Shown in pieces: positions 2,863 to 22,950 of a DNA stretch of 64,000 bases (its first letter is position 1; each line of letters starts with the position of its first letter). The stretch comes from an uncultured delta proteobacterium (GTDB lineage: Bacteria > Desulfobacterota > WTBG01 > CAIYCZ01): positions 1 through 64,000 of the forward strand of contig CAWDOY010000012.1 of NCBI GenBank assembly GCA_963803975.1, given 5' to 3'. The notes below the pieces were generated by a model. It did not search any database, was not told the origin of the DNA, and was given only the letters and a program-made list of their open reading frames with translations. The position numbers were made by a program, and so were the translations under genes.

Positions 2863-4347
2863 CTACTGAAAAATACTGCCCGGTTGCATGATCCCGTTGG
2901 GGTCAAGCCTGTCCCTGATTTTATCTGCGAGATCGTGGTAGGGACCAAGCACTGCCGGCAAACCCTCTCGCGGATTTCTGTTAAACGGGAGCACGATTTG
3001 GCCGCTTCGGGCAGCATATTGGGGCAAGACGTGGCCGATTCTTTTCACCACCTCCTGCCATTTTTGATCTCCCGGGTGGCTGTCTATTCCGAACTCGGCA
3101 AAATAGTAGTGCCCTCCCTCGAAGGGATAGGCAATAGTGGAGCGCCAGTACTCACCGTGGCCAAAATCAGGATCTGAGAAGTCAGGATCATCCATAACAG
3201 CACGGCTATAGACTTTATACAATTCCGCAAGCCGGTCAGGAGAAGGGAAGCCGGCGATGACCCAATTAACTCCGCGCGAGCCCCAGTATTTCATGGAATA
3301 ATCAGAGTAGAAGCTGCCGGACATTCCAGCATGCGATTCGACAAAACTCTCATAGGGCGCAAACTTATCGGTTATTATCTTGCCGCCTGTTTTCTCTGCC
3401 ACGTTCCGAACCACAGACTCTTCATACTGAATCTGTCGTTTGGTGCCTTCCAGCGAAATGATCAACTGAAACTCCGGGTTTGCGCGAATCATCCGTTCCA
3501 TTGCCTCTCGTGTGTCCGTGAAATAGGAGGAATATTTATTTCCAGCGTAAAGATTTATCCCCTTGCAGATTTCTTTTCTGGACAGCTCCCGGAAGGCTTC
3601 GGAAGCCCGGTCAATATCTTCGTAGGAGACCCAGAATTCCTTGTACTGCTCACCCCTAAGCCAGCACTTTATGGTCATCCGGGTTACAATTCCGGTGGTG
3701 CTTAGGGCATGGACAGGAAAAAGGTGCAGATCAGGACCGGGACCGTGCGGCCAGAACTCCTTGCCAATGAACGGGTCAGCACCAGAGCCCACTTTAAACA
3801 GGCTGCCATCAGGAAGTACCATGGTAAATCCGATGATTCCTTTCTCCTGGCGACCCACCCTGTTCGTTACCTTTAACCCCAGCCCGATGATAATGTTGGA
3901 AACAACGCTTGCGGTTGATGGATTGCCCGGCACGGGTATATACATGCCCCGCTTGAGCAGCTCACGGGAAAGCCTGGCAATTGTTACATAGGGCTCAACG
4001 GTTGCAGTAAGATTTTCTTCATCGATTTCTATGATCTGGTCCATCCGTTTCATGTCCATGAGAATACCGCCTCGAAGAGGAACACACACACCGGCAACAT
4101 TGAGCCCGGTAGTCTGGATCGTAATGGGCTCCAGGTATTTTCTGGCTATATTCACAACTTTTTGAACTTCTTCAGTAGTTCCGGGAAGAACCACACAGAA
4201 GGGGGGCCGTATGACAGATGAGAGATTTTCAGGATAGAGGTTGGCGTCACGAGAATAGGCGCATATGATTTCTGGATCACCTGAAACCCATTCATCCCCC
4301 ACGATATTTTTAAGTTCCCTGATTAATCGGTCTTCATCCTGTTGCAT
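2863..4347 (-). CDS. FAD-binding oxidoreductase (VAO/PCMH family), type B
   Basis: VVLPGTTEEVQ, ILMDMKRMDQI, C-terminal LDPNGIMQPG. Confidence 0.85.
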   Translation of the reverse strand: MQQDEDRLIRELKNIVGDEWVSGDPEIICAYSRDANLYPENLSSVIRPPFCVVLPGTTEEVQKVVNIARKYLEPITIQTTGLNVAGVCVPLRGGILMDMKRMDQIIEIDEENLTATVEPYVTIARLSRELLKRGMYIPVPGNPSTASVVSNIIIGLGLKVTNRVGRQEKGIIGFTMVLPDGSLFKVGSGADPFIGKEFWPHGPGPDLHLFPVHALSTTGIVTRMTIKCWLRGEQYKEFWVSYEDIDRASEAFRELSRKEICKGINLYAGNKYSSYFTDTREAMERMIRANPEFQLIISLEGTKRQIQYEESVVRNVAEKTGGKIITDKFAPYESFVESHAGMSGSFYSDYSMKYWGSRGVNWVIAGFPSPDRLAELYKVYSRAVMDDPDFSDPDFGHGEYWRSTIAYPFEGGHYYFAEFGIDSHPGDQKWQEVVKRIGHVLPQYAARSGQIVLPFNRNPREGLPAVLGPYHDLADKIRDRLDPNGIMQPGSIFQ

Positions 4348-4350
4348 CGA

Positions 4351-5550
4351 TTAGCCCTCTGCCGCTTCGTTGACTACTTCCATCAGATCTTTAATCACCA
4401 TACCGGCCGCCCGTGCACTGCTCCACAGGTTCTCCTTGCATCCCGGGCAGGCCGTGATGATAAGATCCGCCTGAACCTGCCTGATCTCCTCGAACCGTTC
4501 CCGCGCTATCCACTGGGAGTATTGAGGAAAGGCTTCCTGCACGCCTCCCCCGGCGCCGCAACACCATGCATTCTTCCTGTTGCGCGGCATCTCAACAAGC
4601 TCCAGCCCGGGAATCGATGACAAAAGGGCTCTGGGTTCATCGTAAACCCCCTGGTGCCTCCCCAGGTAGCATGGATCCTGGAAAACAGCTCGTGTTTTTT
4701 GAGCCCGTAAAACCAGATTGCTCTCTTTGACAGCGGGGATGAGAAACTGGCTGATATGGAGAGCTTTAAATTTCTTGGGAATGCCGAATTTTTCAATGTT
4801 GTTAAATGTGCTGAAACACTCCGCACAGGAAAAAATCACTGTCTGCGCGCCGGAGGAGGCAATCTGCGCTACATTGTGCCTCATGAGTTCAACCGCAGCA
4901 TCTTCTGCGCCGATATCGAGCAAAGGCCTGCCGCAGCATCGCTCATCAGCAAGAAAAAAAAGCGGTATCCCAAGCTTGCGTGTAAGGAGTGCATGAGCAT
5001 TCAGTGCAATCTCGGTTCTATTGAAGCTGGACCGGCACCCTACGAAATAGACGACATCGGAAGGGCGCCCCTCCTGCGGCTCCAGGTCCCCAAGCCATCC
5101 CCGCCTATCCCGGTTGTTCCGGTTGAGGCGGTTGCTGCTTTTCCGGATATTCTCAATAATCCTTTTATGCTGCGGAAGCAGTTCGCCGCCGTGGCGAACA
5201 AAATGTTTCCGCATTTCCATTTCAAGCTTGAGAGGATATCGCCACTGGGTTGCCTGGCACCACTCCTCGCAGGCACCGCACGTTGTACAGGTATACAGAA
5301 TATGCCTGAGTCGCTCAGTGAGCCCCTGCTCGCCCTCAATCAGCCTTCGCGCCAGTTCGCTTCTCCCGCTCGCAAAGTAAGGCTCAAACTTAAACCGGTC
5401 ACCAGAAGGGCACTGCCTGCCAAATCGGCCATGCTCAGTATCCGACGGAAATACGTTTTTGCAATAGCCACATTTGGCACAACGCCACGTCATCTCATAG
5501 TAATCGCCAAGACATTTCCTGATGAACGGATAGCAGTACTCTTGTGCCAT
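4351..5550 (-). CDS. Fe-S oxidoreductase with 4Fe-4S dicluster and two CCG domains (GlcF/HdrD-like)
   Basis: CAKCGYC, CTTCGACEEWC, FVGC..RCCG..SCAEC, DPCYLGR..WCCGAGGG..TACPGC. Confidence 0.9.
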   Translation of the reverse strand: MAQEYCYPFIRKCLGDYYEMTWRCAKCGYCKNVFPSDTEHGRFGRQCPSGDRFKFEPYFASGRSELARRLIEGEQGLTERLRHILYTCTTCGACEEWCQATQWRYPLKLEMEMRKHFVRHGGELLPQHKRIIENIRKSSNRLNRNNRDRRGWLGDLEPQEGRPSDVVYFVGCRSSFNRTEIALNAHALLTRKLGIPLFFLADERCCGRPLLDIGAEDAAVELMRHNVAQIASSGAQTVIFSCAECFSTFNNIEKFGIPKKFKALHISQFLIPAVKESNLVLRAQKTRAVFQDPCYLGRHQGVYDEPRALLSSIPGLELVEMPRNRKNAWCCGAGGGVQEAFPQYSQWIARERFEEIRQVQADLIITACPGCKENLWSSARAAGMVIKDLMEVVNEAAEG

Positions 5551-5563
5551 ATCGTTTACAGCC

Positions 5564-6985
5564 TTAAAGGTTAAGTTTTCCCGGGTTCATAATATTCTCC
5601 GGATCAATTGCCTCCTTGATTTGCTTCAGCATGGCCTTATATGTACCCGCCTTAGCATAGACCTGTCCTGCCCACAACCCGTAGGGCCTGGAAAAAAACG
5701 CCCCCATCCTGAGCAGGGTACTGCTCATTGTCCCGAAGAGTTTCTCAACTATTTTATAGTCCTCAGAGCCTGCAGGCCCGGTATAAAAGGCAAATTGAAA
5801 ATGAATCCGGGATGGCTCAACAGGCAACAACAGCGAGCCAATGTTTTTTACATCATATCCAAAACCACGGGCAATATCGGCAACAACCCGATTGAATATC
5901 GGCAGTTGGCGCGTCATGCAGATGAATGGTATCACGCCATAATATCCTTTAATTTTTTTAAACTTTTCATATCCATCGGGAAACTCTATTTCCTGAAGCA
6001 GTTTCTTTGCGGCCTCCCTGTCTGCAGGCAAGGCATCCAGGAGCTCAACGTTCATTTTTTCTGCAAGCTCAGAAAGATCAGCCACCTGGTACTCAACCTG
6101 CTCTTTTTCTCCCCGCAGGACAAGTACCGCCGTTTGCGGGGACAGGGTGTGCTGCAGCGATGAAAATGTTTCTTGATCTGCAGAGAGAAGTCCCGCAAGA
6201 TAAGTTGCATCTGCAATAAAAAATTCTACCGGGCTGTCCAGCCGCTTTATCTCTTTTAGAACCGGGAAACTTGCTTCAAATGAGGTGAAGGGGATAAAAA
6301 GCACCCGCTGTGTTTCAAAATCGGTCTTGAGCTTTATCGTCGCCCTGGTAACAATACCCAGCGTACCCTGTGCGCCGCAAAAAACCTTGTTTAAATATGC
6401 TGGCATGGTGCCGAACGGAAAATAGGCCTTGTCCATTACGGGTATTGCAGCCATACCGGTTTTAATAAGTTCACCGTTAGGCAGGAGCACCTCCATTGTC
6501 AAAATGGACTCTGTTCCGTATTTAGGCCATGAATACAAGGGGGTCATTTCTACATGGGTTGAGATAACCGAGGACTCTGCCGGGAGTTCGATCGGGGTGA
6601 GCACCCTGAGGCCGCGTGCTTTTGCGCTTTTCTGCAGCTCTGCAAAGGTGACTCCAGGTTCGATGACAGCGTTTCTGCACATATCATCGATAAGGTGAAT
6701 CCTGTTCAGCCTTCTCAAATCAATGATGACACCGGGGATAGAAGGGATTGAGCCACCGTGGCCATTGGTCCTCGAACTGCTGGGGGTCACCGGCATTTTA
6801 TTGAGTGCCGCAACTTTAAGAACAGACTGAATCTCCTCGACGCTGCCCGGTTTTACTGCAAGGAGAGGAGATCGCGGGGGTATGAAGGTTATGTTATCCT
6901 GGGCATAGGACTTCAGGTCTTCCGGTTCGCAGATGACATGTTCTTCACCGACCACAGCTTTTAACTGTTCCTTGATAATTTCCAC
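5564..6985 (-). CDS. FAD-binding oxidoreductase (VAO/PCMH family), type A
   Basis: VKPGSVEEIQ, DLRRLNRI, EPGVTF, GAQGTLGIVT, DPENIMNPGK. Confidence 0.85.
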   Translation of the reverse strand: MEIIKEQLKAVVGEEHVICEPEDLKSYAQDNITFIPPRSPLLAVKPGSVEEIQSVLKVAALNKMPVTPSSSRTNGHGGSIPSIPGVIIDLRRLNRIHLIDDMCRNAVIEPGVTFAELQKSAKARGLRVLTPIELPAESSVISTHVEMTPLYSWPKYGTESILTMEVLLPNGELIKTGMAAIPVMDKAYFPFGTMPAYLNKVFCGAQGTLGIVTRATIKLKTDFETQRVLFIPFTSFEASFPVLKEIKRLDSPVEFFIADATYLAGLLSADQETFSSLQHTLSPQTAVLVLRGEKEQVEYQVADLSELAEKMNVELLDALPADREAAKKLLQEIEFPDGYEKFKKIKGYYGVIPFICMTRQLPIFNRVVADIARGFGYDVKNIGSLLLPVEPSRIHFQFAFYTGPAGSEDYKIVEKLFGTMSSTLLRMGAFFSRPYGLWAGQVYAKAGTYKAMLKQIKEAIDPENIMNPGKLNL

Positions 6986-7188: not shown

Positions 7189-7725
7189 CTACAATCCCTC
7201 AATTGCGCACATGAGTTCCGGGTCAAATTCCACCAGCTCCTGCATGGCAACCAGTATTTCCAGAATGGTAACCCAGTCTGAGTGCGGCAGTTGCCGGGAA
7301 AAGGTTATGGTCACGTCATCCATTCCCAGCACCCACACCCATCGGTGCCTTCCGAGGATAGTTTTTTTGAATAGTTCCTTTGAAAGCTCCACGGTCAAAT
7401 GGGGATCAGTCCAGCTATCATTTTTCACGCTGAACTTACCCTCGCTAAGGGAAACTGCAAATCGCACTGTTTCACTATCGTCATGAATGCCCAGGCCAAT
7501 TACCGCACTGCTCACAAGAAGACTGGTGCCCCCGAAGGGATAACACCTCACTGCCCGCACGCATGCGCTGGCTCCTTCCTGACGTGCGCGCAGGTAATGT
7601 CCATCAGGAATTCCAGAAAAAGTTTTGAAACCATTCAACCGCCTGCGCAGTTCCTCATCGTTGTTCAGATAGGTTTCAAGTTTCTGAGTAAATTCAGTAA
7701 GTGCCAGATTCATGACTACCTTCAT
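7189..7725 (-). CDS. SCP2 (sterol carrier)-like protein with an internal insertion
   Basis: Paralog of 22531-22950 (LNNDEEL/LNADEEL, EGKFSV/EGKFKV, TILEIL/TIIEML); SCP2-like pattern judged by eye. Confidence 0.55.
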   Translation of the reverse strand: MKVVMNLALTEFTQKLETYLNNDEELRRRLNGFKTFSGIPDGHYLRARQEGASACVRAVRCYPFGGTSLLVSSAVIGLGIHDDSETVRFAVSLSEGKFSVKNDSWTDPHLTVELSKELFKKTILGRHRWVWVLGMDDVTITFSRQLPHSDWVTILEILVAMQELVEFDPELMCAIEGL

Positions 7726-10130: not shown

Positions 10131-10760
10131 TCAATGTTGGCCGTTTTTCGCACTTGGTATATTACACGTGTTTGATGGGCACCTACGCTCTAAAACATGT
10201 TCTGCATACTGGGATCGAAACAAACGAAGCGAGTCGTCCACCACAGCACCAGCGGATTTTCCGACCTGGCACATGCTTGCGCTCGCGGCCTGTACCGCCA
10301 GATCCTCCAGCACATCGATGTCCCTTGAGGTGCCGGCACCTGCACAGATGCGGTTGAGTATCTCGAGCATCCGCAGGGTGCCAATGCGACATGCGGAGCA
10401 TTCTCCGCATGATTCCTTATACAGGGCATCAAGAAAAAAACGGGCGACATCAACCATGCAGCAGGTCTCTGCCCAGACGACGCTGCCACTTCGACCGCTC
10501 ATAAAGACCCTATTGGTGATATCATCATGCTGGATGCGAAAGTCAAACAGATTGTGGGGAAGCTGCTCAGCCACAGGTACGGCATCGCGCCCTGCATATA
10601 AAAAATCAGCCGGGTAGACACCGCTGGAAATAACCCTGCTGTTGATTCTCATACAGGTACTCATTTCAACCTGATGGGGAAGCTGCGACCTTCTTTTTAG
10701 CTTATATCGCTTTAGTCGCTGCTCAAAAATTTCCTCGGGATAGCTTTTGCTTTTACTCAT
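10131..10760 (-). CDS. Stand-alone NuoF C-terminal 4Fe-4S domain protein
   Basis: CMVDVARFF..ESCGECSACRIG..SMCQVG..HVLERRCPSNTC; no FMN/NADH-binding domain visible. Confidence 0.75.
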   Translation of the reverse strand: MSKSKSYPEEIFEQRLKRYKLKRRSQLPHQVEMSTCMRINSRVISSGVYPADFLYAGRDAVPVAEQLPHNLFDFRIQHDDITNRVFMSGRSGSVVWAETCCMVDVARFFLDALYKESCGECSACRIGTLRMLEILNRICAGAGTSRDIDVLEDLAVQAASASMCQVGKSAGAVVDDSLRLFRSQYAEHVLERRCPSNTCNIPSAKNGQH

Positions 10761-11919
10761 CGTAGGAAAGATATTTTTTAGGATTTTCTATTAACATCGT
10801 ATCTATTGCTTTTTGAGAAACTCCGTACGCATTTTTTAAAACAGGTATTATTGTTTCTAAAAGGTGGGTATATCCATAACCCCCATACTTTTTGTAATGA
10901 ATCTTCATGTAGCACTCACAGGAAGGCAGGAGCTGCTCCGCATAACCTTCTTCAACCAGCTTTGCAAGCACCTCCATCCTTTGCCGGTTGTCATAGTTGA
11001 TGCCGTAGCCAAGCCCTATGAGATAGGTTTCATCATTAAACCCGTCAAAGCTAAGACCTATGCCTCTGTCAAGAAGGGATCTCAGCAAATCAATATTGCA
11101 GGTATAGCAGTCACTGTGATTCATATAAAACTTATCAAAATTAACCCCCTCTTGCTTTAGAATATCCAGGTATTGATGGAGGCTGCTCTCCTTTAACGGC
11201 TTGTCTTTGATGTATGAGGTAAGCTTGGAATTATAGAGCAGCTGTTCGTGCCCGTTGGGATGAACACAGAACGGCCTTCCCGTTTTTACCTGAGCCCTGC
11301 AGCAAGCCAGGAAGCACTTTTTCTCGTCTTCATTGTTAAAAGCCTTGAACCCTCCTCCTACCCCAACCTTGATGATGCCGGCTTTAATCCCGCCTGTGTC
11401 TATTGGGTAGCCGTACCCGGTGCCCCAGTTGTACCTGCACCCTTCGGTTATTTCTTGAACAAGAATGTCACACAGCTCATCTGCGGTTTTATCCTTTATA
11501 TAGGGCGGGTGAGTCGGGGCTAAGTACCATCCGCTTGCACAGATAATGTTCACACCGCTGGCAATTGCCATTTTTTTCTGGCCGATCGGATCACGTGTCG
11601 GCAGCAGGGTCGTGGGACAGGTGTCAACAATGGTACAACACCCCGCCATTTTCAGTTCGCGCAGCTCCTGGATCACCATGTCCAGGTCGTCAATCACCAG
11701 ATTGTCAAGGCAGGAAAGGGGATCGATGCGCAGCCTGCCCAGAATTTCGATACAAACCCTGGCATCTTTTATAAAGGCTCCTGAAGATGCTTTGTATTCA
11801 GTATACCAGTTTGAGATATTGGTCGTCGTGTGCATGTGGCACAAGGTGACCCCAAGTTCAGCGGGCGAGATCGGGCCGCGAACAGTCATCACCCTCTTTT
11901 CAGCCATGCCTCTCTCCAA
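10753..11919 (-). CDS. Phosphotriesterase-related amidohydrolase-fold protein
   Basis: VMTVRGPI, LGVTLCHMH, GIKAGIIKVG, CVHP, MNHSD, KKYGGYGY, IENPKK. Confidence 0.8.
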   Translation of the reverse strand: MERGMAEKRVMTVRGPISPAELGVTLCHMHTTTNISNWYTEYKASSGAFIKDARVCIEILGRLRIDPLSCLDNLVIDDLDMVIQELRELKMAGCCTIVDTCPTTLLPTRDPIGQKKMAIASGVNIICASGWYLAPTHPPYIKDKTADELCDILVQEITEGCRYNWGTGYGYPIDTGGIKAGIIKVGVGGGFKAFNNEDEKKCFLACCRAQVKTGRPFCVHPNGHEQLLYNSKLTSYIKDKPLKESSLHQYLDILKQEGVNFDKFYMNHSDCYTCNIDLLRSLLDRGIGLSFDGFNDETYLIGLGYGINYDNRQRMEVLAKLVEEGYAEQLLPSCECYMKIHYKKYGGYGYTHLLETIIPVLKNAYGVSQKAIDTMLIENPKKYLSYDE

Positions 11920-12008: not shown

Positions 12009-13286
12009 TTAGTACCCGTACTCCAGTAAAGCCTTGGGTGAAAAATAATCATACTGCAATCCTAATCCCTTTTCTCCGGCTGCCCATTCTGTAAAATATG
12101 CTTTTGTCCCATGGAGCCGCTGTACATCAATAACGGTTTGATTCGCAATTGCCAAAACCATCTGGCCATCATATGCCGATTTAACTGTTCTATAGGATAC
12201 TTCAAAAAGTTTCCACAATTTGCCCAGCTTGTCATATTTATCAGCATACAGAATAACCCAATTCTCCGGGTCAAGATACCAGATCTCCTTGCTGTAAATA
12301 TAATTCGGGTCCTTGTTCTTACACTCTACTACATACATATTGATTCTCTCGCGCTGGTACCCGCTCACATAGCACTGTCCCTCTATATCGTTTGCTTTCA
12401 GCTTCATCGGGTCCTGATGCCGGGGCATGAGCAGTTCTTTTCTTCCTATTGTTTTATACACATTATCTCTAATTACCCAGTTGTACCCGCCCTGGTCATT
12501 ATAGGTAATGTCCGAAGGACCGATATGGGTCTGCCGCTGGGCTGTAGATCTGCGGACAACCCGTCTGGTCGAGCTTGAAAACTCCCACGAACCGTAATCC
12601 TTCCCCCTGTCGTTCCACTTCACCGTCATGGCCCGCATACCCTTGAACGCAGGGGGTTCATAATATTGCATATGGTATGCTTGGTACATGTCTTTCGGGT
12701 TAGGTACAAATGCCGGCGCCGGTGGAACATCTCTCCGCCCGGTAAACCAGGTCTGATACTCATCAACAATCATGGGGCGGTTACTTTTTTTCCTGCCGTC
12801 GACAATTTCCATATGGGTATGATCCCGAAAATTATCTCCCCTGCTAAAATTGTCGAAATTATAGGCCATTTCTAATGGGGTCTGGGGGTTAGGGAATGGA
12901 ACCCCGGATACATAATTCAAAAGGTTCTCGTCAGGCCCTATTTTACACTGGCCAGCTTCGGTAAATTTTATATCACCCTTGGTCGGTATAAACTCCTGGT
13001 AGGGGACTATCTCAAACCAGTACTCTCCCCATTTTCCAGGGTCGGTTAATAAACTATACAAATTTTCAGGAAGAAGTTCCTTAACCTTACCAATGTTAGC
13101 AGGGGTAATTTTTTGACCCACCCAGGTTTTTTCCCATTCTCTTAATTGCTCAAGCTCTTTTGCCTCATAACACAATACCGGATATCGGATTTCTGCAGCC
13201 CGGCTGGTCGCAGGCATAAAAAGCCCTACCCATAGCATTACCGTTATTACCAGGATTAATAATGAAAACATTTTTTTGTTGTCCAT
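12009..13286 (-). CDS. DUF1329-family periplasmic protein
   Basis: Signal peptide; ITPANI, GVPFPNP, RRVVRRS, YSKEIWYLDPE, YDKLGKLWK. Confidence 0.75.
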   Translation of the reverse strand: MDNKKMFSLLILVITVMLWVGLFMPATSRAAEIRYPVLCYEAKELEQLREWEKTWVGQKITPANIGKVKELLPENLYSLLTDPGKWGEYWFEIVPYQEFIPTKGDIKFTEAGQCKIGPDENLLNYVSGVPFPNPQTPLEMAYNFDNFSRGDNFRDHTHMEIVDGRKKSNRPMIVDEYQTWFTGRRDVPPAPAFVPNPKDMYQAYHMQYYEPPAFKGMRAMTVKWNDRGKDYGSWEFSSSTRRVVRRSTAQRQTHIGPSDITYNDQGGYNWVIRDNVYKTIGRKELLMPRHQDPMKLKANDIEGQCYVSGYQRERINMYVVECKNKDPNYIYSKEIWYLDPENWVILYADKYDKLGKLWKLFEVSYRTVKSAYDGQMVLAIANQTVIDVQRLHGTKAYFTEWAAGEKGLGLQYDYFSPKALLEYGY

Positions 13287-13354: not shown

Positions 13355-14836
13355 TCAGAATTCATATTTTACTGAAAGCCCCACTTGATTGCCATATTTG
13401 TCGAGATGCTTGTTTAAATCCTGATAAAAGAGAACAAACTGCCAGTGGAAAGTGGGCATATAGACTAACTGGGGCAGCAAGGTGCGGCTGCCGTTTGTGT
13501 CATACGATATGTTAAACACGGTGGTCAGGGTGCTGAATAAAAAAGTGGTTGATGCGGTAAAGCTAAATTTGGTCTGTGATGAATCCTTGCCTGTTTCACC
13601 GATTATGTATTCGCCAGTGGCCTTATTATGTTCATGATCAAACATATAGTACTGATACCAGGTAAAGGACAAACTGAACGGCTCATTCCGGTTCATATCG
13701 GATATCCAGGGAACCATGGTTTTTCTGTCAAACGTGAGAGCAGTAGTAAGAAGTCTTCTCTGTTTAATAGCACTGACACTGTTAGCAGCCGTGCCATAAT
13801 TGTAATCCCGGCTTGTGTTAAAAGCACATTCACCCCTGATGGCCGAGCGAAGCTTTGACGAGGTGGTGGAAAAACAAAAGGCAGTAGAGTTGTAGCGCGG
13901 GTACGTCCATACTTTACGGGAAGTATCACCGAGCAGCATGAGGAGTAATAAATTAGTCTGCCCCTCTGCGCCGTTTATGAGCGGGGAGTCAAGCCTGGTA
14001 TAAAAATGAGAGAGATACCAGTCCACACCTTCACCTATTGTGGAGTATCCCCGTATTCTCAACCCAACTTCACAATTGTTCCAGCTGGAACTCGGGGCAT
14101 CCCTTCGCTGTGCATCAAGAACCCGCTGGAACCAATTGCTCGGCAGTATGGGGAGTGGCATTGGGGACTGCCCGACGTAAGCGCCATGCCCTGCGGGCGG
14201 GACTCTCGTTCCAATAAAGGTAGATGGTATTACAAGAAATTCAAACGACATATCCTGCCACCAGTTTTCCGGCCGCCAGAACATCCGTGCCATCCAGAGA
14301 CCCATCTTATAGTCCTCCCAGTCCGGAAAAGCGATTATATACTTCAAATTAAGAGGGTTGATAACGTCTGCCACACGTGCTTCAGCAGTCTCCCCCCAGC
14401 TTACCAGCTGCTTGCCCAAACGGAGCTGAAAGGTTTTATACTTTACATCAAAGTAAGCCTCCTTGAGATACTCTTCGCTGTCGCTCGGCCTTTGGACGTT
14501 ATTATAATAACTGCGGCCAGCTTCTTGTCCGACTGAGTATCTCATATTCGAGTCTATATCAAGAACATAGTCATAATAGTAATTGGCAAGTGAATAAAAT
14601 TGAATATCAAGCTCAGGGCAGCTCACTATTTTGTATAAAGCTTCACCTCGTACCGTTGTCCTGAAGCTGTTATACCGTATATTGCGTTCATCCTGATGAG
14701 TTTTTACATTCAGTGTCTGCTGAATACTCCCCTTAAAATCCAGCTTTCCATCGTACAACGATAAGGGAAATGCACTGCTCTGCAGTAAAAACAGCAATGC
14801 AATTACCATGAAAAGATTGAAAAATGTTTTTTTCAT
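13355..14836 (-). CDS. DUF1302-family outer-membrane beta-barrel protein
   Basis: Signal peptide; LKEAYFD, LRLGKQLVSWGE, DVINP; terminal YEF. Confidence 0.75.
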   Translation of the reverse strand: MKKTFFNLFMVIALLFLLQSSAFPLSLYDGKLDFKGSIQQTLNVKTHQDERNIRYNSFRTTVRGEALYKIVSCPELDIQFYSLANYYYDYVLDIDSNMRYSVGQEAGRSYYNNVQRPSDSEEYLKEAYFDVKYKTFQLRLGKQLVSWGETAEARVADVINPLNLKYIIAFPDWEDYKMGLWMARMFWRPENWWQDMSFEFLVIPSTFIGTRVPPAGHGAYVGQSPMPLPILPSNWFQRVLDAQRRDAPSSSWNNCEVGLRIRGYSTIGEGVDWYLSHFYTRLDSPLINGAEGQTNLLLLMLLGDTSRKVWTYPRYNSTAFCFSTTSSKLRSAIRGECAFNTSRDYNYGTAANSVSAIKQRRLLTTALTFDRKTMVPWISDMNRNEPFSLSFTWYQYYMFDHEHNKATGEYIIGETGKDSSQTKFSFTASTTFLFSTLTTVFNISYDTNGSRTLLPQLVYMPTFHWQFVLFYQDLNKHLDKYGNQVGLSVKYEF

Positions 14837-14927: not shown

Positions 14928-17288
14928 TTAATTTGAAGTCTTATTTATAAGAAACTTTGGTTTTAATAAAAATACCAGTACCGGAACGAGAAATATCGCT
15001 CCAAGACAGTTCAGAAAGAGTATCACCGCCAGCATCATGCCCATCTGTGCCTGGAACTTGAGGGGTGATAAAGTCCAAATCAGCAGCCCGAGCACTAGGG
15101 TGCCGGCAATATAGATTATGGATTTGCCATACGACTGTATGGTGCAAATCAGCGCCTCAGCCAGCGACCGTGAGGGGTCCCTCCTCTTTTCCTCTTCAAG
15201 ACGTGCCAGAAAATATATTCCGTAATCAACCCCCATGCCGATTCCTGCAGCAGATACCGGCAGCGTGGAGATGGAAAGGCCGATCTGGAATATTGCCATG
15301 TAGGCAAATGCTATCCAGTTTGAAAGGAGAAGAGGGATGGTAAGTATCAACCCAGCTTTAATTGACTTGAACTCAAGGGTACAGAAGAAAAACACTCCAA
15401 GCAGGGCTATGAGCAAAGTTTGGAGTTGCTTCTCTGCAACAACCTCGTTTATAGCAGCTTCCACCCCGATAACACCTCCCGCAAGCTTATATGAAACCGC
15501 GTCATTTGCTTTGAGCACTGAATGCTCATTCATAAAAGCTCGTGCTGTATCAATAGCCTTTTTTATAGTGGGGCCGGTTTTATCTTTGAAAAGAACGACA
15601 ATATTTGTGTACTGGTCATGATAATCCATGAACCGCTCCACAAATCCGGGATCCCCGCCGCTTGCCAGCTGTTGAAACAGGTGGATGATATCGAACTCGG
15701 CGTCCGGAAACCCGTACCACTTGGGGTCATCAGCATGCATACCCTGATTCATGCCCAGCAAGAGCTGTACAATATTCTGTGTGCCTGCCGATCCGGAGTT
15801 CTTCTCCATATAGCGGCTGAAGTGATATATATCTTTTATCACCCTGCCCGTTTTTATTGCATACCTCTGTGAACCTGAAACAATAATGTACAGCGGATTT
15901 ATTAATGGGTGGGTCTTGTTTATGCGCTCGCTGTCCTGGTTGTAGCGGGAGGAAGGATAGAGGTAATTAGAGCCGACCTCAGCGTCTCCAACAATGAGGC
16001 GCTCTGACCAGTAATAGGAAAACACCAAAATGATCAGCACGCTGACGATGACCGTATTTCTCCCGCGGCGTGCTAAGAGCCAGGGACCCAGCCAATCGGC
16101 AAATCTGTTTGCCAGCCCTGTCCTCTTTTTATCCTTTTCCCGCTCTTTTTCTATATGCTTTAAAAATTTTTTAGAAATGGGGCAGTAGGTTAGCAGCACC
16201 GGGGTTAGAATAAGGCCGATAAAAACTGTTATTATAGACCAGAAAGCACAGGCGATTGAAATGTTGCGAAGCATTGGTATGGGCACAATTGCCACGATGG
16301 CAATCCCGAAGGCGTCGGTTATGACACTGGTCAGACCCGGAAGAAACATCTCTTGAATGATGGTCTTTGCAGCCTGCTGCTGGTCACCGTGGGTTATATA
16401 TTCTTCGTAGAAGCGGTTGTACAGCTGGTGGGAGTGGCGGAACGCCATGAGCCCGATGAGAAACGGCATCACAAAAATAAGCGGATCTAAATTGTATCCC
16501 ATAAGGCCCATAAATCCCAGGCCCCAAATCCCTGAGATAATCCCTGCTGAAGGAACAAGAAACGTTGGCCAGAGAGACCTGTAGGCAAAAAACAGCAATA
16601 CCGGAATCACCAGGGCTGTGCAGATAAGAATATAATTAATCGTATCGACCATGTTCCCGATTATTCCGATGTGCATGGGATAACCCACAATGCAGAGCCT
16701 GTGCTGATCATCCTCCACCGTATCGCGTATCCTGGTGAGGCCCTGGTAGATCAGATTATAGTCAAGTTTTTCCTCGTAAAAATCGGCCGTGATCAGGGAG
16801 TTCTTGCAGTCATTCGACACATAAGTTCCGTAGTACATCATGTTAGAAAAAATCGAATCCTTCAGCTTCTTCATTTCCTGTTCTGTTTTAGGGATTTCAG
16901 GCCACATGAGATAATTGGTCTCGATGCCCCATGAGGTGAATTTGAACGTGCTGAATTTCTGGTGGGCAATGGAGAGGATTTTGTGCCGGTCAATGCCCGG
17001 AATGGTGAGCAGCTCATCGGTCACATATTTTATCTTCCCAAGAGTTACCTGATTAAAAATGTCCCCGCTTTTGACCTGAAGCAGCATGATTAGCTGATTT
17101 GCCCCGCCGAAATTCTCCTGAAACTCCTTGTGTATCTTAATGTAGGGATGGCTTTGCGGCAAAAGATCACCAAAGCTGGTCATAACGTTTAATTTGGGTA
17201 TCTGCGTGGCCCACAGCACGGTAACAATTGCGGTGAGTATAAGGATGACTGCGCGAAACCGTACAGTCACTTCAGCAAACTTCTTCAT
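14928..17288 (-). CDS. RND/MMPL-family membrane transporter
   Basis: Two hydrophobic halves; HPYIK, FGGAN, GIGMGVDYGIY. Confidence 0.85.
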   Translation of the reverse strand: MKKFAEVTVRFRAVILILTAIVTVLWATQIPKLNVMTSFGDLLPQSHPYIKIHKEFQENFGGANQLIMLLQVKSGDIFNQVTLGKIKYVTDELLTIPGIDRHKILSIAHQKFSTFKFTSWGIETNYLMWPEIPKTEQEMKKLKDSIFSNMMYYGTYVSNDCKNSLITADFYEEKLDYNLIYQGLTRIRDTVEDDQHRLCIVGYPMHIGIIGNMVDTINYILICTALVIPVLLFFAYRSLWPTFLVPSAGIISGIWGLGFMGLMGYNLDPLIFVMPFLIGLMAFRHSHQLYNRFYEEYITHGDQQQAAKTIIQEMFLPGLTSVITDAFGIAIVAIVPIPMLRNISIACAFWSIITVFIGLILTPVLLTYCPISKKFLKHIEKEREKDKKRTGLANRFADWLGPWLLARRGRNTVIVSVLIILVFSYYWSERLIVGDAEVGSNYLYPSSRYNQDSERINKTHPLINPLYIIVSGSQRYAIKTGRVIKDIYHFSRYMEKNSGSAGTQNIVQLLLGMNQGMHADDPKWYGFPDAEFDIIHLFQQLASGGDPGFVERFMDYHDQYTNIVVLFKDKTGPTIKKAIDTARAFMNEHSVLKANDAVSYKLAGGVIGVEAAINEVVAEKQLQTLLIALLGVFFFCTLEFKSIKAGLILTIPLLLSNWIAFAYMAIFQIGLSISTLPVSAAGIGMGVDYGIYFLARLEEEKRRDPSRSLAEALICTIQSYGKSIIYIAGTLVLGLLIWTLSPLKFQAQMGMMLAVILFLNCLGAIFLVPVLVFLLKPKFLINKTSN

Positions 17289-17302
17289 GTGCCATGCCCC
17301 TG

Positions 17303-18346
17303 TCAGTTAAAATATATTCCGGAGCTTCTTTTCCATTCAGCACCTGCGTTGTCAGTGTAGAGTATTGTTCCCCGGGCGCCTACGATCCAGCCGTGTTTTC
17401 CACTGCTAAAAGCCATGCCTCTCAGCCAGAATTTAGTTCCCAGCGCAGACTCAAGAAGCTTCCACGTATTACCGCCATCAGAAGAAACCATATAACTTCC
17501 ATGTGCCCCTATAGCCCAGCCTTTTTCTCCCACTACGGTAACCTGGTAAAGGGTAAAATCGGTCTTGGGGGTCAGCCGCTTCCAGGTCTTGCCGCCGTCC
17601 TCGGTTTTAATAATGATCCCGTCCATGCCTGTTGCCCAGCCGACAAGAGGTGATTTGAAGTATACCCCGTAGAGATTCGGGGGAGGGGGAGGAAAATCCT
17701 TTTCAGCCTCTTCGGGCTGAATCTCATTGCATACTTGCGGACTCCAGGTCATGCCGCCATCTTCCGTATGGTAGATGACACTGTATTCGCCAACGATCCA
17801 GCCTTTCTGGGCATCAAAGAAATAGACCCCGTTGTAATACCGGTCTTCACCGCGGCCCTGCTTTACCCAGGTCTCCCCCCCGTTGCCGGTATGCAGAATG
17901 GTGCCCATAGTACCGACAGCCCAGCCGGTCTTTATATCTATGAAATGCACATCAAACAACCGCTGATCAGTGTTTGTTTCCTGTTTTGTCCACGTTTTAC
18001 CGCCGTTGCTGGTATGGAAAACCGTCCCCCGCTGCCCAACCATCCATCCGTTGTCCGTATCAACAAAACATAGGTCATACAGATCTACTGCAACCGGTGG
18101 TTTCTGGGTTTCCCAGCTTTTTCCCCCGTCTGATGTGTGAAGAACAATTCCTTCAAACCCGGCAATCCAGGCATGACTGCTTCCCTGGGACTCCACGGCA
18201 AACAGATGTTCAGTCGTAACCATGGGCCTGCGACTTCGGGCATTGCCAGTGAGTTGATTCGCTTCATTTCCCTTACTTAAGCATCCTTCAAGAATCAGAA
18301 GCAGGATTACCCATAGGAAGGCGTGCTTTTTGACTGATGTATCCAT
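17303..18346 (-). CDS. YCF48-like BNR-repeat beta-propeller lipoprotein
   Basis: Lipobox LEGC; repeated GW(I/A)VG..G.I.HT.DGG.TW. Confidence 0.85.
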   Translation of the reverse strand: MDTSVKKHAFLWVILLLILEGCLSKGNEANQLTGNARSRRPMVTTEHLFAVESQGSSHAWIAGFEGIVLHTSDGGKSWETQKPPVAVDLYDLCFVDTDNGWMVGQRGTVFHTSNGGKTWTKQETNTDQRLFDVHFIDIKTGWAVGTMGTILHTGNGGETWVKQGRGEDRYYNGVYFFDAQKGWIVGEYSVIYHTEDGGMTWSPQVCNEIQPEEAEKDFPPPPPNLYGVYFKSPLVGWATGMDGIIIKTEDGGKTWKRLTPKTDFTLYQVTVVGEKGWAIGAHGSYMVSSDGGNTWKLLESALGTKFWLRGMAFSSGKHGWIVGARGTILYTDNAGAEWKRSSGIYFN

Positions 18347-18352
18347 AGTCCC

Positions 18353-19840
18353 CTAATAACCTTCAATAAAGCCAATGTTAGGATTCATGATATTCGCCGG
18401 GTCAACAGCCTGCTTGAGCTTCTTTGCAGCTTCGTAAAAGTTACCCGTTATATTACAGGTAAGCGGGTCCCTGCCCACGGTCCAAAGCCCTCCCCCCATC
18501 AGCCAGGGAACTGCACCCATATTGTGAATAACCTCCCATACACCCTTCACATGGTCGGGACTGGTATGGTCAAAGGCAAAAATGTACTCTGCAATGACAT
18601 AGTGCCCCCACTGGTAGGTATACAACTGTGCACCGCTGGCAATCTCTCCGAAACCGGGTTCAGGATAGTCCATATAGGCCTTGACCTTCTGCGTGCCTTC
18701 CTCACATAATCTTACATACTCGGGTACCTGGTCCACTGACAAATACCCCATGTTGCTCATAATCATCCCCAGATGCCGCATCAGGCGCGGGCTGTTAGAC
18801 TGACCCCAGCCCTTGATATTCTGCTCATGGCCACGGTACACTTCCACCAGTTCTGGCGGCGCAATGCGTCCGCCGTGCTTTCTGATGATCTTTTCTGCAA
18901 GCTTCGCCTGATAATCTACCGCTCGCACTGTCCCTTCTACCCCCATTCCCAACATGTACTTGGGTGAAGCCTTGGCAAGGCGTATCCCCTCTGAGCGCGT
19001 CTCTGCCGAATAAGCAGCCTGTGTCCAGGCTGGCATCACAAACAATCCCCTTCCGATGTCTTTATGCAGCAGTTCAATTAAGCAATCTGTTGGCGTGTTA
19101 AAATCCTCAAAATATGCCCAGATGCTCTTGTATGCATCAGGATATGGATGCAGGCTCCACGTGATTCGGGTGCAAACCCCCAGTGATCCCAGAGCAAAAA
19201 ACGGGAAATATGTCATTGTCGGCCCGGGGCCCTGCATCCAGTGATTGACTCCAAAGATATTGGCTCCTGAAGAAGTGTTAAAAACCGTCCCATCCGGAAG
19301 TACCATCTCAAGTGAAAGGATATTTTGCAGCCCTACGCCATACTTCAATCCTGCAAACTTATTGATTCCCTGAAAGATATTGGTGGCATTATTGAGAGAG
19401 GGGCCAGGCGCCCCGGTAAAGTAGGGTCGCCACCGGAAGTTCTCCTCTTCCACCAGCTGTTTGAAATACCCCGTCAGCGTTGTCACAAATACCCCGGCCT
19501 CTACCGTTACGGTCAGGTTCTCGCGGTCCAGATGGATACCCCTCATCCGCTTCATGTCGATCATGATCCCGCCGGTAACCGGGATGGAGCCGGCAAGAAC
19601 TGCGGCTCCGCCGCCAATGAGGTGCACCGGGATGTTATACTGATTGGCGATGCGCAGCACATTCTGCACATCAGGGGTTGACCCCGGCAGCACCACGATA
19701 TCAGGCAGTCTTTCCGGGTATACTTTCAAACTGTCAGTAAATAAGTCCCGCGAGTAGGGAATACAGTCAATGGGTTCATTCGACACATATTCTTTTCCCA
19801 GGATATCTTCGAGCTTCTTTTTTATTTCACTCAGCATCAC
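18353..19840 (-). CDS. FAD-binding oxidoreductase (VAO/PCMH family), type B
   Basis: VVLPGSTPDVQ, IDMKRM, GSLGVCT, DPANIMNP; paralog of 2863-4347 (W..GPGP and YA.YS.ETR-like motifs). Confidence 0.85.
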   Translation of the reverse strand: MMLSEIKKKLEDILGKEYVSNEPIDCIPYSRDLFTDSLKVYPERLPDIVVLPGSTPDVQNVLRIANQYNIPVHLIGGGAAVLAGSIPVTGGIMIDMKRMRGIHLDRENLTVTVEAGVFVTTLTGYFKQLVEEENFRWRPYFTGAPGPSLNNATNIFQGINKFAGLKYGVGLQNILSLEMVLPDGTVFNTSSGANIFGVNHWMQGPGPTMTYFPFFALGSLGVCTRITWSLHPYPDAYKSIWAYFEDFNTPTDCLIELLHKDIGRGLFVMPAWTQAAYSAETRSEGIRLAKASPKYMLGMGVEGTVRAVDYQAKLAEKIIRKHGGRIAPPELVEVYRGHEQNIKGWGQSNSPRLMRHLGMIMSNMGYLSVDQVPEYVRLCEEGTQKVKAYMDYPEPGFGEIASGAQLYTYQWGHYVIAEYIFAFDHTSPDHVKGVWEVIHNMGAVPWLMGGGLWTVGRDPLTCNITGNFYEAAKKLKQAVDPANIMNPNIGFIEGY

Positions 19841-21080
19841 GTCCGCCCCTTTTCTTTCTTTCCGTTTCGCCGAAAACCGACTGGCTCAGAAGTTTCACCA
19901 CGTCCACGAGCTCAAGCTTTGATCCCGAGGTGCTGATAAAATCAAGAAAGTTCTGGGCGCAGAACGGGCATGAGGTGGCCAGATACGAGGCGCCGCTGGC
20001 CTCGGCCTCCTTCACGCGCCGGCTGGCTGTGGCCATGGCGAATTCAAGCTTCCCGGTCCGCGCGCCGCCGCCTCCGCCGCAGCAGAAGGAGTATTCCCGG
20101 ATGCGCTTCATCTCGTTCAGCTTGATGCCGGGGATCGCTTTCAGGATATTTCGCGGCGGGTCAAAAATCTTACTGTGCCTGCCGAGATGACAGGGGTCAT
20201 GATAGGTAACGGTCATGTTGACCGGGTGCTTGGGCACCAGCTTTTTCTGTCCCACTAAATCTGCAAGCATGACCACCGCGTGCTTGACCTCGAAGTTGCA
20301 CGCGCCCAGCTGCGGGTAGACATTTTTGATGGTATTGAAACAGCCGGAGCAGGGGGTGACGATGGTCTTGATGCCGGAGGCGTTAAATGCCTGGATGTTG
20401 TCCGAGGCGTACTTCTCCAGCACATTAACATAGCCCAGGTTAAAGGCGGTGGAGCCGCAGCACTTCTCCTCGTTGCCCAGTATGCCGAAATCAACCCCAG
20501 CCGCGTTCAGCAGCCGAGCGATGTTCTGGATATTTTCCGTGATGCGCGGGTCATAGGCATAGGTGCAACCCGGATAGAACAGGACTTCAGCCTTTTCCTT
20601 GCCCTTGGAGAGGTCCTTGAGTTTAAAGTCAAGGCCGCGGGTCCAGGAGGTGCGGCGCGCGCGGGGCTGGCCCCAGGGGTTGTCGTAGGCTTCAAGGTTC
20701 TGGATTATGACGCGCTGCGCGGGAAGCGGTCCCACGCCTGCCTCGACCGCCTTGGAGCGCATCCAGCGGATAATGTCAGTTGGTTTCAGCACATTGGTGC
20801 GCTCGCAGGTGTACTGGCAGAAGCCGCAGGTGGTGCAGGAGTAAATGGCGTCGACCACCCGGTCAGACCACTGCAGCTGTCCGCGCTGCAGGGCAAGAGC
20901 AGCGTAGTTGCGCCCTGACGGGTAATAGGATTCAAAAAAGTAGTTGGTCCCCGACGGGCACTGCAGTCCGGTCTCATCGCCCATGATCTGCTCCGCGTGC
21001 ACGGTCCTGCAGGTGCCGCAGCGGGCGCAGAATGAAGCCTTCTTGAACATCTCTTCATCGAATTCAAATTTATATTTCAT
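19827..21080 (-). CDS. Fe-S oxidoreductase with two CCG domains (GlcF/HdrD-like)
   Basis: CARCGTC, CTTCGFCQYTC, YPGC..KCCG..PCSGC, YHDPCHLGR..CCGGGGG..SCPFC. Confidence 0.9.
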   Translation of the reverse strand: MKYKFEFDEEMFKKASFCARCGTCRTVHAEQIMGDETGLQCPSGTNYFFESYYPSGRNYAALALQRGQLQWSDRVVDAIYSCTTCGFCQYTCERTNVLKPTDIIRWMRSKAVEAGVGPLPAQRVIIQNLEAYDNPWGQPRARRTSWTRGLDFKLKDLSKGKEKAEVLFYPGCTYAYDPRITENIQNIARLLNAAGVDFGILGNEEKCCGSTAFNLGYVNVLEKYASDNIQAFNASGIKTIVTPCSGCFNTIKNVYPQLGACNFEVKHAVVMLADLVGQKKLVPKHPVNMTVTYHDPCHLGRHSKIFDPPRNILKAIPGIKLNEMKRIREYSFCCGGGGGARTGKLEFAMATASRRVKEAEASGASYLATSCPFCAQNFLDFISTSGSKLELVDVVKLLSQSVFGETERKKRGGRDAE

Positions 21081-21087
21081 ATTTATT

Positions 21088-22524
21088 TTACCGTAGAGCC
21101 AGTTTCCCTGGATTCATAATGTTATTGGGATCATAGAGATCTTTCAGTAATTTTATTTTTCGGTGATATGCCCCCATCCTGGAATATACCGATTCGGCCC
21201 ACATGGGGTACGGGCGTGGAAAGAACCCCCCGGCTCTTATCAATGTTTCGCTCATGTGCTTGAATCGCTGTTTTGCTTTTTGGGTCTGCTGTTCATCAGA
21301 GGGGTCATAATACACACTGGGCTCAAAGTAGTAACTCCCGCCAAAATTAAGCGGCATTATCATCCACCCGAGATCTTCCTCACCACTGCCGTTGGTGCCA
21401 GCAGCCTGCATGGTAAGCTTGTAAAAAGTCCGCAGCTGGGAGTTCGATGCCATACAGGCGATGTAGGCGCATCCCCCTCGATAGCGCCGCTGGTTGAGCA
21501 TACCGCGTGGACTGTCTATCTCTGCCATCATCCGGGCTTCTAAATCAGCTTTAACAGCCAAACCCTTAGCCAGGGATTTGAGGTTGAATTTCTTCAGCAC
21601 ATCCGCCATGTCAAGATTTTTATACGCAACCTCTTCTTCATCGTTTCCGGAGAGCCCGATCACCGCTGTCCACGCAGGGAGCGCTTTTTCAAGTTCATCA
21701 ATTTCCTGTTTATCTTTTGCCAGAAGGCAGGAAAGATAGCGGCTGTTTGCGACAAAAAATTCATCGTTAGCCTCCTGCCGCATAAGGGCAGAACAAAGCT
21801 CCGGGAGAATGTCGATGCTATCAAGTTCGATAAAAAGATAGTTCCGGTTCGCAACTATATTTTTCAGCGTTACCGCTGCTTTTACTGCAATACCCAGCGT
21901 GCCTTGCGCGCCAAAAAAAAGCCTGTTTATGACTGCAAAATTGGTCGCCCAGTGATACGGGCGATCCGAGTTTTGCATCGCCATTTGGCCTGTTCCCATC
22001 AACTCCCCTGTGGGAAGTATCATTTTAAGACTCAGCGTCTCCCAGGTCTTGTAGCGCGGCCACAGGTAGAGTGGCGTGTTCTCCAGATACGTGGTTAAAA
22101 CCGATGCTTCTGCCGGTATGCCTACCGGCGTCATTGGCCTTAACCCGGCTTTTTTTGCCTCAAAAGACAACTGAGTAAAAGTTACTCCGGGCTCGATAAT
22201 TGCGTTTCGCGCAACTCTATCTATCAAGTCTATTCTATTCAATCGGCGCAAATCCACGGTTATCCCGCGCTCAGTTGGAATGTGCGCTCCCTGATAAGTC
22301 GTGCCAGAACTGAACGGAAACAATGCTACCTTTTCACGGTTTGCCAGTCGCACGACAGCCTGTATCTCTTCAGCCTCTCCGGGGCGTACTGCGCACAGCG
22401 GTCTCATGGGCTTTACGAAACTGCCGTCCTCGCTATATATCTCAAGTTCCCGCGAATCAGTTATCACATGGTCTGATCCGACTATCTCCTGCAGTGTTTC
22501 AATAATATACTTTGCATCTGCCAT
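21088..22524 (-). CDS. FAD-binding oxidoreductase (VAO/PCMH family), type A
   Basis: VRPGEAEEIQ, DLRRLNRI, EPGVTF, TPLYLWPRY, GAQGTLGI, FFPRPY, DPNNIMNPGK; paralog of 5564-6985. Confidence 0.85.
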   Translation of the reverse strand: MADAKYIIETLQEIVGSDHVITDSRELEIYSEDGSFVKPMRPLCAVRPGEAEEIQAVVRLANREKVALFPFSSGTTYQGAHIPTERGITVDLRRLNRIDLIDRVARNAIIEPGVTFTQLSFEAKKAGLRPMTPVGIPAEASVLTTYLENTPLYLWPRYKTWETLSLKMILPTGELMGTGQMAMQNSDRPYHWATNFAVINRLFFGAQGTLGIAVKAAVTLKNIVANRNYLFIELDSIDILPELCSALMRQEANDEFFVANSRYLSCLLAKDKQEIDELEKALPAWTAVIGLSGNDEEEVAYKNLDMADVLKKFNLKSLAKGLAVKADLEARMMAEIDSPRGMLNQRRYRGGCAYIACMASNSQLRTFYKLTMQAAGTNGSGEEDLGWMIMPLNFGGSYYFEPSVYYDPSDEQQTQKAKQRFKHMSETLIRAGGFFPRPYPMWAESVYSRMGAYHRKIKLLKDLYDPNNIMNPGKLALR

Positions 22525-22530
22525 TAATCA

Positions 22531-22950
22531 TCACTCCATCTGCAGCACAAGTTCTTGTATGTCTGGATTTTTTGTTGTCATCTCACTGGCCAGCAGCAGC
22601 ATCTCTATGATTGTCGCGCCGTTCCAGTGGGTGAAGTGTGGCGTGTCAAAGGTCAGCTCTGCTTCAGGGTCGAGCATGCTGTACAAAAGCTGGTGCTTTC
22701 GCTGTATCACTTCCGAAAAAATCCTGTTCGGCATCTTCCAGCGAAGCAGCGGCTTCTCCGCTGCACCTGTGCTTACTTTAAATTTTCCTTCTTTCACGTC
22801 CACCTTGTATGGCGGCTGGTTGCCAACGATCAGTTCGATTGCTGTTCTTCCTTCTACAGTCGAGTAGTAACTTTTGTTGCGCTCCTGAAGTTCTTCGTCT
22901 GCATTGAGTACGTGCTCCCAATTGCGCATTATCTTGGCAAATCGGTCCAT
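22531..22950 (-). CDS. SCP2 (sterol carrier)-like protein
   Basis: 139 aa; VDVKEGKFKVSTGAAEKP pattern typical of the SCP2 fold. Confidence 0.6.
   Translation of the reverse strand: MDRFAKIMRNWEHVLNADEELQERNKSYYSTVEGRTAIELIVGNQPPYKVDVKEGKFKVSTGAAEKPLLRWKMPNRIFSEVIQRKHQLLYSMLDPEAELTFDTPHFTHWNGATIIEMLLLASEMTTKNPDIQELVLQME

Follow-up and report, generated by a model that had tools for sequence, protein, structure and literature searches.

Old paralogous modules of an A-C-B flavoprotein family with an added SCP2-like protein in an uncultured Desulfobacterota lineage: candidate redox enzymes for hydrophobic ring compounds

What is the role of a four-gene set that occurs twice within a single run of genes in an uncultured delta proteobacterium? 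The window analysed here, i.e. the first 64,000 nucleotides of contig CAWDOY010000012.1 (assembly GCA_963803975.1; source genome, hereafter G000), holds between positions 393 and 22950 a run of 17 co-oriented open reading frames (ORFs) on the minus strand, which contains two sets composed of a small SCP2-like protein (S), a flavoprotein (A), an iron-sulfur (Fe-S) protein with CCG domains (C) and a second flavoprotein (B). In the following we refer to these modules as S1-A1-C1-B1 and S2-A2-C2-B2 (Table 1). Their doubled, co-oriented order had been claimed in an original prediction made without database searches, and indeed all eight ORFs are located on the minus strand where it had placed them. 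Both modules are very probably members of a family of A-C-B heterotrimeric flavoproteins, and the S-bearing branch of this family appears to be new.

The coupling of S and A was studied in a VAO-family tree of 115 rows, from which ORFs shorter than 410 amino acids (aa) and duplicate loci were excluded and in which over-long starts were trimmed. The A-type proteins, 57 rows in total, fall into a single clade (SH-aLRT 95), which includes an S-bearing clade of 23 rows (SH-aLRT 99). S is located within 1 kb upstream of A in all 23 rows of the S clade vs none of the 34 other A rows, usually with abutting or overlapping ORFs (in the window, the S1 ORF ends 7 bases upstream of A1); the 23 cases represent one gain inherited by kin, and the loci from the class of the source were chosen around S. 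With a broad profile, S is detected in 28 of the 42 genomes of this class, with a narrower S1 profile in 6 of 401 genomes of the phylum, all of the same class, and the S-bearing relatives are metagenome-assembled genomes of uncultured Thermodesulfobacteriota/Deltaproteobacteria. The A2 query matches 62 of the 401 phylum genomes at E 1e-40, and every one of the 15 loci fetched around A-type matches in S-free genomes shows the order A-C-B with no S. Fusions of S and A were found neither among longer proteins, which is weak evidence, nor among the 45 representatives that constitute the small S family at E 0.001, where three long matches turned out to be short partial ones. We consider S a probable physical partner or dedicated carrier of the enzyme.

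The double-module cluster recurs, together with its uptake and electron-transfer genes, in two other genomes of the class (G005, locus L026; G017, loci L027 and L070) and is distributed over two contigs in a third (G004, loci L031 and L068), so that its order is not due to chance, and the expectation that the gene order would be kept elsewhere was borne out by this synteny. The phosphotriesterase-family protein is 82-86% identical in two orthologous clusters and missing from the third (L068). In the source genome, a further S-A-C-B set (module 3, contig C36), which represents the common type of the class, has another A-B pair and an amidohydrolase-2 gene ahead of it, and S-A-S-A arrays occur in G023 and G026. 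In G005 a PNPOx-like gene (L026:16301-16882) lies between S2 and A2, where the window has a 204-base gap.

Neither S1 nor S2 matches a Pfam family at E 0.001, PF02036 included. The AlphaFold2 model of S1, based on 39 sequences, reaches a pLDDT of 92; its top Foldseek matches are SCP2 domains, UbiJ among them, and VIA-align finds 2cx7 as the best match (Z 10.4, rmsd 3.3, 117 residues). S2 matches the S1 profile at E 1.8e-9, so that the earlier description of the small proteins as SCP2-like holds for S1 by its predicted fold and for S2 by homology only. About 36 extra residues are present in S2 and in its orthologues, which excludes an assembly error or artefact. S1 has its fold in common with SCP2 proteins such as TT1886, AF1534 and UbiJ; unlike these, S possesses a conserved His of its own, has no Pfam SCP2 match and is linked to a single clade of flavoproteins. 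Binding of a substrate and its presentation to a complex are ascribed to the SCP2 domain of UbiJ. The S1 model suggests a likely cytoplasmic carrier for a hydrophobic substrate. SCP2 is annotated in 76% and 11% of the members of the Atlas look-alike clusters of S1 (0.93). Promethearchaeota are represented in the look-alike clusters of both S1 and A2, which is no more than a lead to possible modules of this kind in Asgard archaea.

The original prediction regarded the whole set as a candidate for an undescribed system. This would apply to the S-bearing branch, but the A-C-B core has already been described in two 2026 papers on benzene degraders. According to the available text of PMC13101534, a FAD, Fe-S, FAD trio ('Magic' proteins 24-26) was detected more than any other proteins in a benzene degrader and is modelled as a GlcDEF-like trimer, and the organism has a DUF1329/YCF48/MMPL cluster too. 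In the corresponding text of PMC13416013, the same trio (BzS1_12970/80/90) accounts for about a fifth of the proteome, and homologues at 23-42% identity are considered likely to have other functions. Both papers propose the trio for anaerobic benzene activation, neither shows activity in these portions, and the identity among the trios of benzene degraders is reported as 63-97%.

The benzene trio and the window modules agree in the order FAD - Fe-S/CCG - FAD and in domain layout, one subunit having both Pfam FAD domains and the other the N-terminal one only, and the sequence of 'Magic' protein 26, as printed, has A-type motifs by eye. By contrast, the window modules are without CoA ligase, MaoC and CoA-transferase neighbours, include an SCP2-fold gene, possess a shorter B (about 495 vs 581 aa), share their run with uptake and NAD(P)H genes and have many paralogues. 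Measured against L053 (G029), a locus with the described 'Magic' gene order that served for the numerical comparison, identity amounts to 30% over 463 aa for A1, 29% for C and 21-27% for B. The A protein of L053 falls inside the 57-row A clade, and its B protein is found among long B proteins outside the S branch; the short B nests among the long B in a 22-row tree without outgroup root, and less firmly in the 115-row tree. Orthology with the 'Magic' trio is rejected, given 21-30% identity to L053 vs a criterion of about 60% and the lack of CoA-transferase/MaoC synteny. Judged from sequence, the window modules are distant members of the benzene-linked family and not the benzene enzyme. When JGI metagenomes were scanned with a short pattern for one named copy of the A subunit linked to benzene, no match was obtained. 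The term 'SCP2' is absent from the main text of both papers and from the supplements of PMC13101534. In the open literature, mostly at the level of titles, we found neither an SCP2-linked complex of this sort nor tetrapyrrole catabolism in this group; such homologues may appear in the figures of the two benzene papers (S16-S19 in the case of PMC13416013) or in preprint supplements.

How are the two copies related? A1 and A2 are 38.7% and B1 and B2 30.6% identical (BLASTP bit scores 338 and 199), vs 21.5-26.3% between A and B, so the claimed resemblance of A to A' and of B to B' beyond that of A to B is real; C1 and C2 are 29.1% identical, S1 and S2 23.8% over 84 aa (BLASTP). Two of the motifs that had been named for it, FF.RPY..WA..VY and W..GPGP, occur as written, whereas TPLY.WP.Y is present in both A proteins but the following Glu is off by one residue in A1. 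The window modules are old paralogues and not each other's closest relatives, as module 1 is sister to module 3 with module 2 outside, and approximately unbiased (AU) tests reject both an A1+A2 clade (p 0.0008, or 0.0045 with an extra S-A pair added) and a B1+B2 clade (p 0.0006). A local tandem duplication of the window modules is rejected by these tests. The idea that the module was duplicated as a whole fits the A and B trees, which mirror each other (28 A rows, 22 B rows), but not C: C1 clusters with the module 3 C proteins, while C2 groups elsewhere with weak support. G000 contains about 12 A-type genes, several of them frameshifted. Among such loci, L002 (C48:2228-6600) is a frameshifted near-copy of module 3, and paralogous loci on contigs C1, C25, C32 and C4 are also frameshifted, which may reflect assembly error or strain mixture.

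By Pfam, A1 and A2 consist of FAD_binding_4 and FAD-oxidase_C (the C-terminal match of A1 being short), B1 and B2 of FAD_binding_4 alone, and C1 and C2 of Fer4_8 with two CCG domains, which makes them HdrD/GlcF-like. The fold was modelled for B1 only (pLDDT 75.7, several loops low) and is a two-domain VAO fold (TM 0.71-0.78); 4-phenol oxidases/dehydrogenases and LDHD are about equally close to this model, at 16-21% identity. GlcDEF, like the window modules, comprises two VAO-fold chains and a CCG Fe-S chain, and Dld, LctD and LDHD share the fold. The C-terminal motifs HxGDGNxH and EHG are the metal motifs of the GlcD/Dld/LctD 2-hydroxy acid dehydrogenases. None of the 106 A and B rows has HxGDGNxH, which is present in GlcD and in two GlcD-like controls, one of them a separate gene of the source genome (E. 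coli Dld missed the pattern); the string GEHG occurs twice among the 57 A rows, in neither case in a protein of the window. Unlike GlcDEF, Dld, LctD and LDHD, the window modules lack the metal-binding His motifs and have an SCP2 partner. The glcD NCBIfam model scores 55-83 bits vs a cut-off of 568, and A and B are placed on branches apart from characterised GlcD, GlcE and Dld, as had been predicted, albeit with long-branch warnings for the reference sequences.

Among the best structure matches of B1 are PCMH and other 4-phenol oxidases/dehydrogenases. In VAO, Tyr503/Arg504 constitute a Tyr-Arg phenolate site (PMC5646868, in the part available). At this column, mapped via one PchF-like plasmid protein, A1 has Pro-Arg and A2 Ser-Arg, the Arg is kept in 55 of 57 A rows, and B1 and B2 are without the pair. 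The modules differ from PCMH by an Fe-S/CCG acceptor, by the lack of a cytochrome c subunit (no partner gene among 23 ORFs scanned with Pfam), by the missing Tyr in A1 and A2 and by less than 21% identity. The cap region of B is 74-90% identical in 8 orthologue pairs and 20% between 12 modules, that of A 54-68% and 29%, respectively; a B cap conserved among orthologues and divergent between modules argues for a module-specific pocket in B and a shared role of A. We therefore regard B as the likely holder of the substrate pocket and, with fair probability, as the catalytic subunit, and A1 as a likely scaffold or electron relay. The main point against this division of labour is that the conserved PCMH-type flavin-side Arg lies in A and not in B, which could mean that A is catalytic. 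GltD-like, NuoF-like and Fe-S genes are conserved in the orthologous clusters, and NuoF/NuoG-like genes flank another A-C-B locus (L089).

What might such a complex do? A plausible reading, although one that falls short of being probable, is that the modules are carrier-fed, O2-independent redox enzymes that would act on a large, hydrophobic ring compound, with a tetrapyrrole derived from a pigment, or a fragment of one, as the most likely candidate; that the substrate is hydrophobic is likely. The DUF1302/DUF1329/YCF48/MMPL set would import the substrate, and S would bind it and present it to the complex in the manner of UbiJ. By analogy with PCMH, the flavin of B would take a hydride from an activated CH2 beside the ring, and water would add to a methide-like intermediate; if the CH2 belonged to a pyrrole-CH2 bridge, the intermediate would correspond to an azafulvene, closely analogous to the quinone methide, and could prime cleavage of the bridge. 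Electrons would pass via A and the clusters of C to the NuoF-like, GltD-like and ferredoxin-like neighbours and then to NAD(P). The reaction could also run in the reverse, i.e. reductive, direction.

That the substrate is derived from a tetrapyrrole is a tentative suggestion. G000 has 22 Fe_bilin_red matches, 17 of them over the cut-off; bilin reductases occur in 32 of 42 class genomes (6-22 per genome), and over the cut-off in 12 of the 401 phylum genomes, all of the source's class, and are almost missing from the rest of the phylum sample. All 28 S-positive class genomes carry ferredoxin-dependent bilin reductases, the 10 class genomes without bilin reductases are all without S, and four have bilin reductases but no S. 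Neither is present in G016 (95% complete), though the rest of its family has bilin reductases. At the end of the window (63862-64000, plus strand, and on to C12:64329; 5863-6330 in L010) lies a gene for BchF, the 2-vinyl bacteriochlorophyllide hydratase, over the TIGR02020 cut-off, which stands apart from other bch genes. G000 also contains three BchB/BchZ-like chains, 7 FrhB-like and 20 PNPOx-like matches, chelatase-like genes and about 20 further loci similar to geranylgeranyl reductase (GGR), and no dsrA over the cut-off. As far as the available text of the two sources goes, pigment synthesis was attributed to a class of Desulfobacterota that has bch-like genes but lacks a reaction centre (10.1101/2021.03.22.436540), and bilin reductases are active in heterotrophic bacteria (PMC10151467). 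In its fullest form, the proposal is that the modules are the core of an unrecognised anaerobic breakdown of chlorophyll- and haem-derived tetrapyrroles in this uncultured Desulfobacterota lineage, which would combine pigment import, reduction by expanded bilin reductases and DPOR-like enzymes, and opening of pyrrole-methylene bridges by the SCP2-fed A-C-B complex via an azafulvene, and in which the bch-like genes would be catabolic and not relics of photosynthesis. We hold this complete scheme to be somewhat unlikely.

Several observations weigh against a pigment substrate. The cluster itself contains no tetrapyrrole gene, and proximity to bilin reductases is low: of the 12 A genes, two have one at a distance of up to 15 kb (random positions: 9.7%) and four at up to 25 kb (random positions: 13.4%), and just one of 18 S-centred loci in other genomes (L030) holds one. 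The co-occurrence of S and bilin reductases mostly follows four related families and is thus close to a single event. BchF is present in just 11 of 42 class genomes, and the three BchB/BchZ-like chains of G000 are all below the cut-off. Finally, A-C-B sets occur in many Desulfobacterota without bilin reductases, so that the core is not pigment-specific.

Some individual loci deserve description in this context. In L030 (G023:C41), the series S-A-S-A-C-B-B'-C' is directly followed by two bilin reductase homologues in one orientation. In L086 and L039 (G040:C75), Flavodoxin_5, bilin reductase, coproporphyrinogen-oxidase-fold and GGR-like genes run straight into the module 3 locus; L086, like L087, was fetched for the known bilin reductase there. 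L081 (C3:156-172 kb) and L082 (C50:21-33 kb) display DPOR/COR-like nitrogenase-fold pairs beside CbiX and ferrochelatase-like genes; further genes there encode alpha/beta hydrolases, a GGR-like protein and an OYE-type reductase, the last of which has a bilirubin reductase match below the cut-off.

Among the alternatives, the same architecture could serve a sterol, hopanoid, isoprenoid (e.g. phytol) or other lipid, in line with the original prediction, which we consider unlikely, yet better supported than the remaining ones; the genomic surroundings speak for pigments to the same degree. Cholesterol oxidase II and DHCR24 are VAO-family sterol enzymes, and the predicted SCP2 fold of S1, the GGR-superfamily gene conserved downstream and weak matches of the RND protein to HAE3, HpnN and BstA models fit a lipid substrate. 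However, no sterol enzyme is among the listed top structure matches of B1, and by Pfam and NCBIfam the cluster is without beta-oxidation, CoA-ligase and steroid-pathway genes, a result that covers the cluster and not steroid pathways in the rest of the genome. DUF1302/DUF1329, BNR and RND genes of Pseudomonas putida have phenotypes on fatty esters (10.1101/2020.07.04.188060, available part), which again favours lipids. Plant-derived or other aromatic or heteroaromatic compounds (lignans, flavonoids, alkylphenols, lactones) are improbable substrates; here, a PCMH-like hydroxylation of a methylene would be combined with lactone opening by the phosphotriesterase-family protein. This chemistry would suit 4-phenol oxidases and pinoresinol hydroxylase, which lead the matches by structure and sequence, as well as the benzene-linked relatives, the phosphotriesterase-family gene of the cluster and the amidohydrolase-2 gene ahead of module 3, but of the Tyr-Arg site the Tyr is missing in A1 and A2 and the Arg in B, there is no cytochrome c partner, and the orthologous cluster in L068 dispenses with the phosphotriesterase gene.

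It is very unlikely that the modules are biosynthetic and use NAD(P)H to reduce or modify a pigment, a quinone or a membrane lipid, the product being exported by the MMPL system. Such a role would agree with the NAD(P)H-linked genes of the cluster, with UbiJ among the fold matches of S1 and with the pigment-making interpretation of the bch-bearing class without reaction centre, whereas about 12 paralogous modules, many DUF1329-type loci and a divergent TetR gene with operator-like repeats would be better suited to substrate-induced catabolism. Ordinary GlcDEF-like 2-hydroxy acid dehydrogenases with S as a bystander are largely refuted, for although the three-part layout is shared, members of the B2 cluster bear KEGG-style names like 'glycolate oxidase' and LDHD ties occur among the structure matches, the glcD scores, the absence of HxGDGNxH and the exact association of S with one A clade all oppose them.

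If the pigment reading were true, the fate of chlorophyll under anoxic conditions could be assigned to particular organisms and enzymes, and the presence of bch genes in genomes that lack reaction centres would be explained. The A-C-B family contains the leading candidate for anaerobic benzene activation; the S-bearing branch, with its carrier, uptake and electron modules and operator-like sites, offers handles for substrate discovery that would make the chemistry of the family testable. A-C-B genes alone are no marker of benzene degradation.

Table 1. Features of the double-module cluster and its flank, in window coordinates
Feature	Position	Strand	Basis or remark
GGR-superfamily flavoprotein, true start likely near 1787	393..1904	-	NCBIfam; conserved downstream
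2Fe-2S + 4Fe-4S protein, HoxU/NuoG-like	1853..2794	-	Pfam; conserved 3' of B2
B2, 494 aa, short B-type flavoprotein	2863..4347	-	Pfam, tree
C2, 399 aa, Fe-S/CCG protein	4351..5550	-	Pfam
A2, 473 aa, A-type flavoprotein	5564..6985	-	Pfam, tree
S2, 178 aa, S1 homologue with conserved insertion	7189..7725	-	sequence homology
GltD/SfrB-like NAD(P)H-linked flavo-Fe-S protein, 688 aa	7871..9937	-	PRK12814, 611 bits, under cut-off 916
Short NuoF-like protein, 4Fe-4S part only	10131..10760	-	Pfam; orthologous clusters
Phosphotriesterase-family hydrolase	10753..11919	-	Pfam; orthologous clusters
DUF1329 protein	12009..13286	-	Pfam
DUF1302 protein	13355..14836	-	Pfam
MMPL/RND transporter, HAE3-like	14928..17288	-	Pfam + NCBIfam
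YCF48/BNR-repeat protein, uptake module	17303..18346	-	Pfam
B1, 495 aa, short B-type VAO/PCMH flavoprotein	18353..19840	-	Pfam, structure model
C1, 417 aa, two CxxCxxC motifs + two CCG domains, HdrD/GlcF-like Fe-S protein	19827..21080	-	Pfam
A1, 478 aa, A-type VAO/PCMH flavoprotein	21088..22524	-	Pfam, tree
S1, 139 aa, predicted SCP2 fold	22531..22950	-	structure model, fold matches
Near-palindrome TGACYRSAGTC, four copies (23070, 23092, 23249, 23271), likely TetR operators	23070..23281		between S1 and TetR
TetR-family regulator, divergent, true start likely further downstream	23310..24140	+	Pfam + NCBIfam

The near-palindrome TGACYRSAGTC between S1 and the TetR gene has four of its ten genomic copies in this short interval, while even two copies occurred in 0 of 5000 shuffles, the motif having been derived from this region; the four repeats are likely TetR operators. 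The motif is absent from 10 related loci, and no regulon emerged from its six other genomic copies. Promoter and terminator scans remained at the shuffled level (24 vs 25.4 and 22 vs 18.8, respectively). In one study, the contigs of three RNA runs on sediment span the cluster, but they cover a control stretch equally well or better, which says nothing on transcription.

Solved structures gave no match to the GGR-superfamily flavoprotein at E 1e-4. The short NuoF-like gene is unlikely to be a pseudogene, since its orthologues are likewise 198-214 aa long. Between this gene and the GltD-like gene, a perfect 26-base palindrome followed by a T-run (10014-10039) represents a possible terminator or binding site. 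Beyond the cluster, the stretch 25160-55200 forms a block of higher GC content (about 55-59% vs 45-54% in the cluster), which, with an acyltransferase, an MMPL-methyltransferase fusion, a glycosyltransferase and an apparent ketosynthase and ammonia-lyase (names given mostly by eye), resembles a lipid or polyketide cluster.

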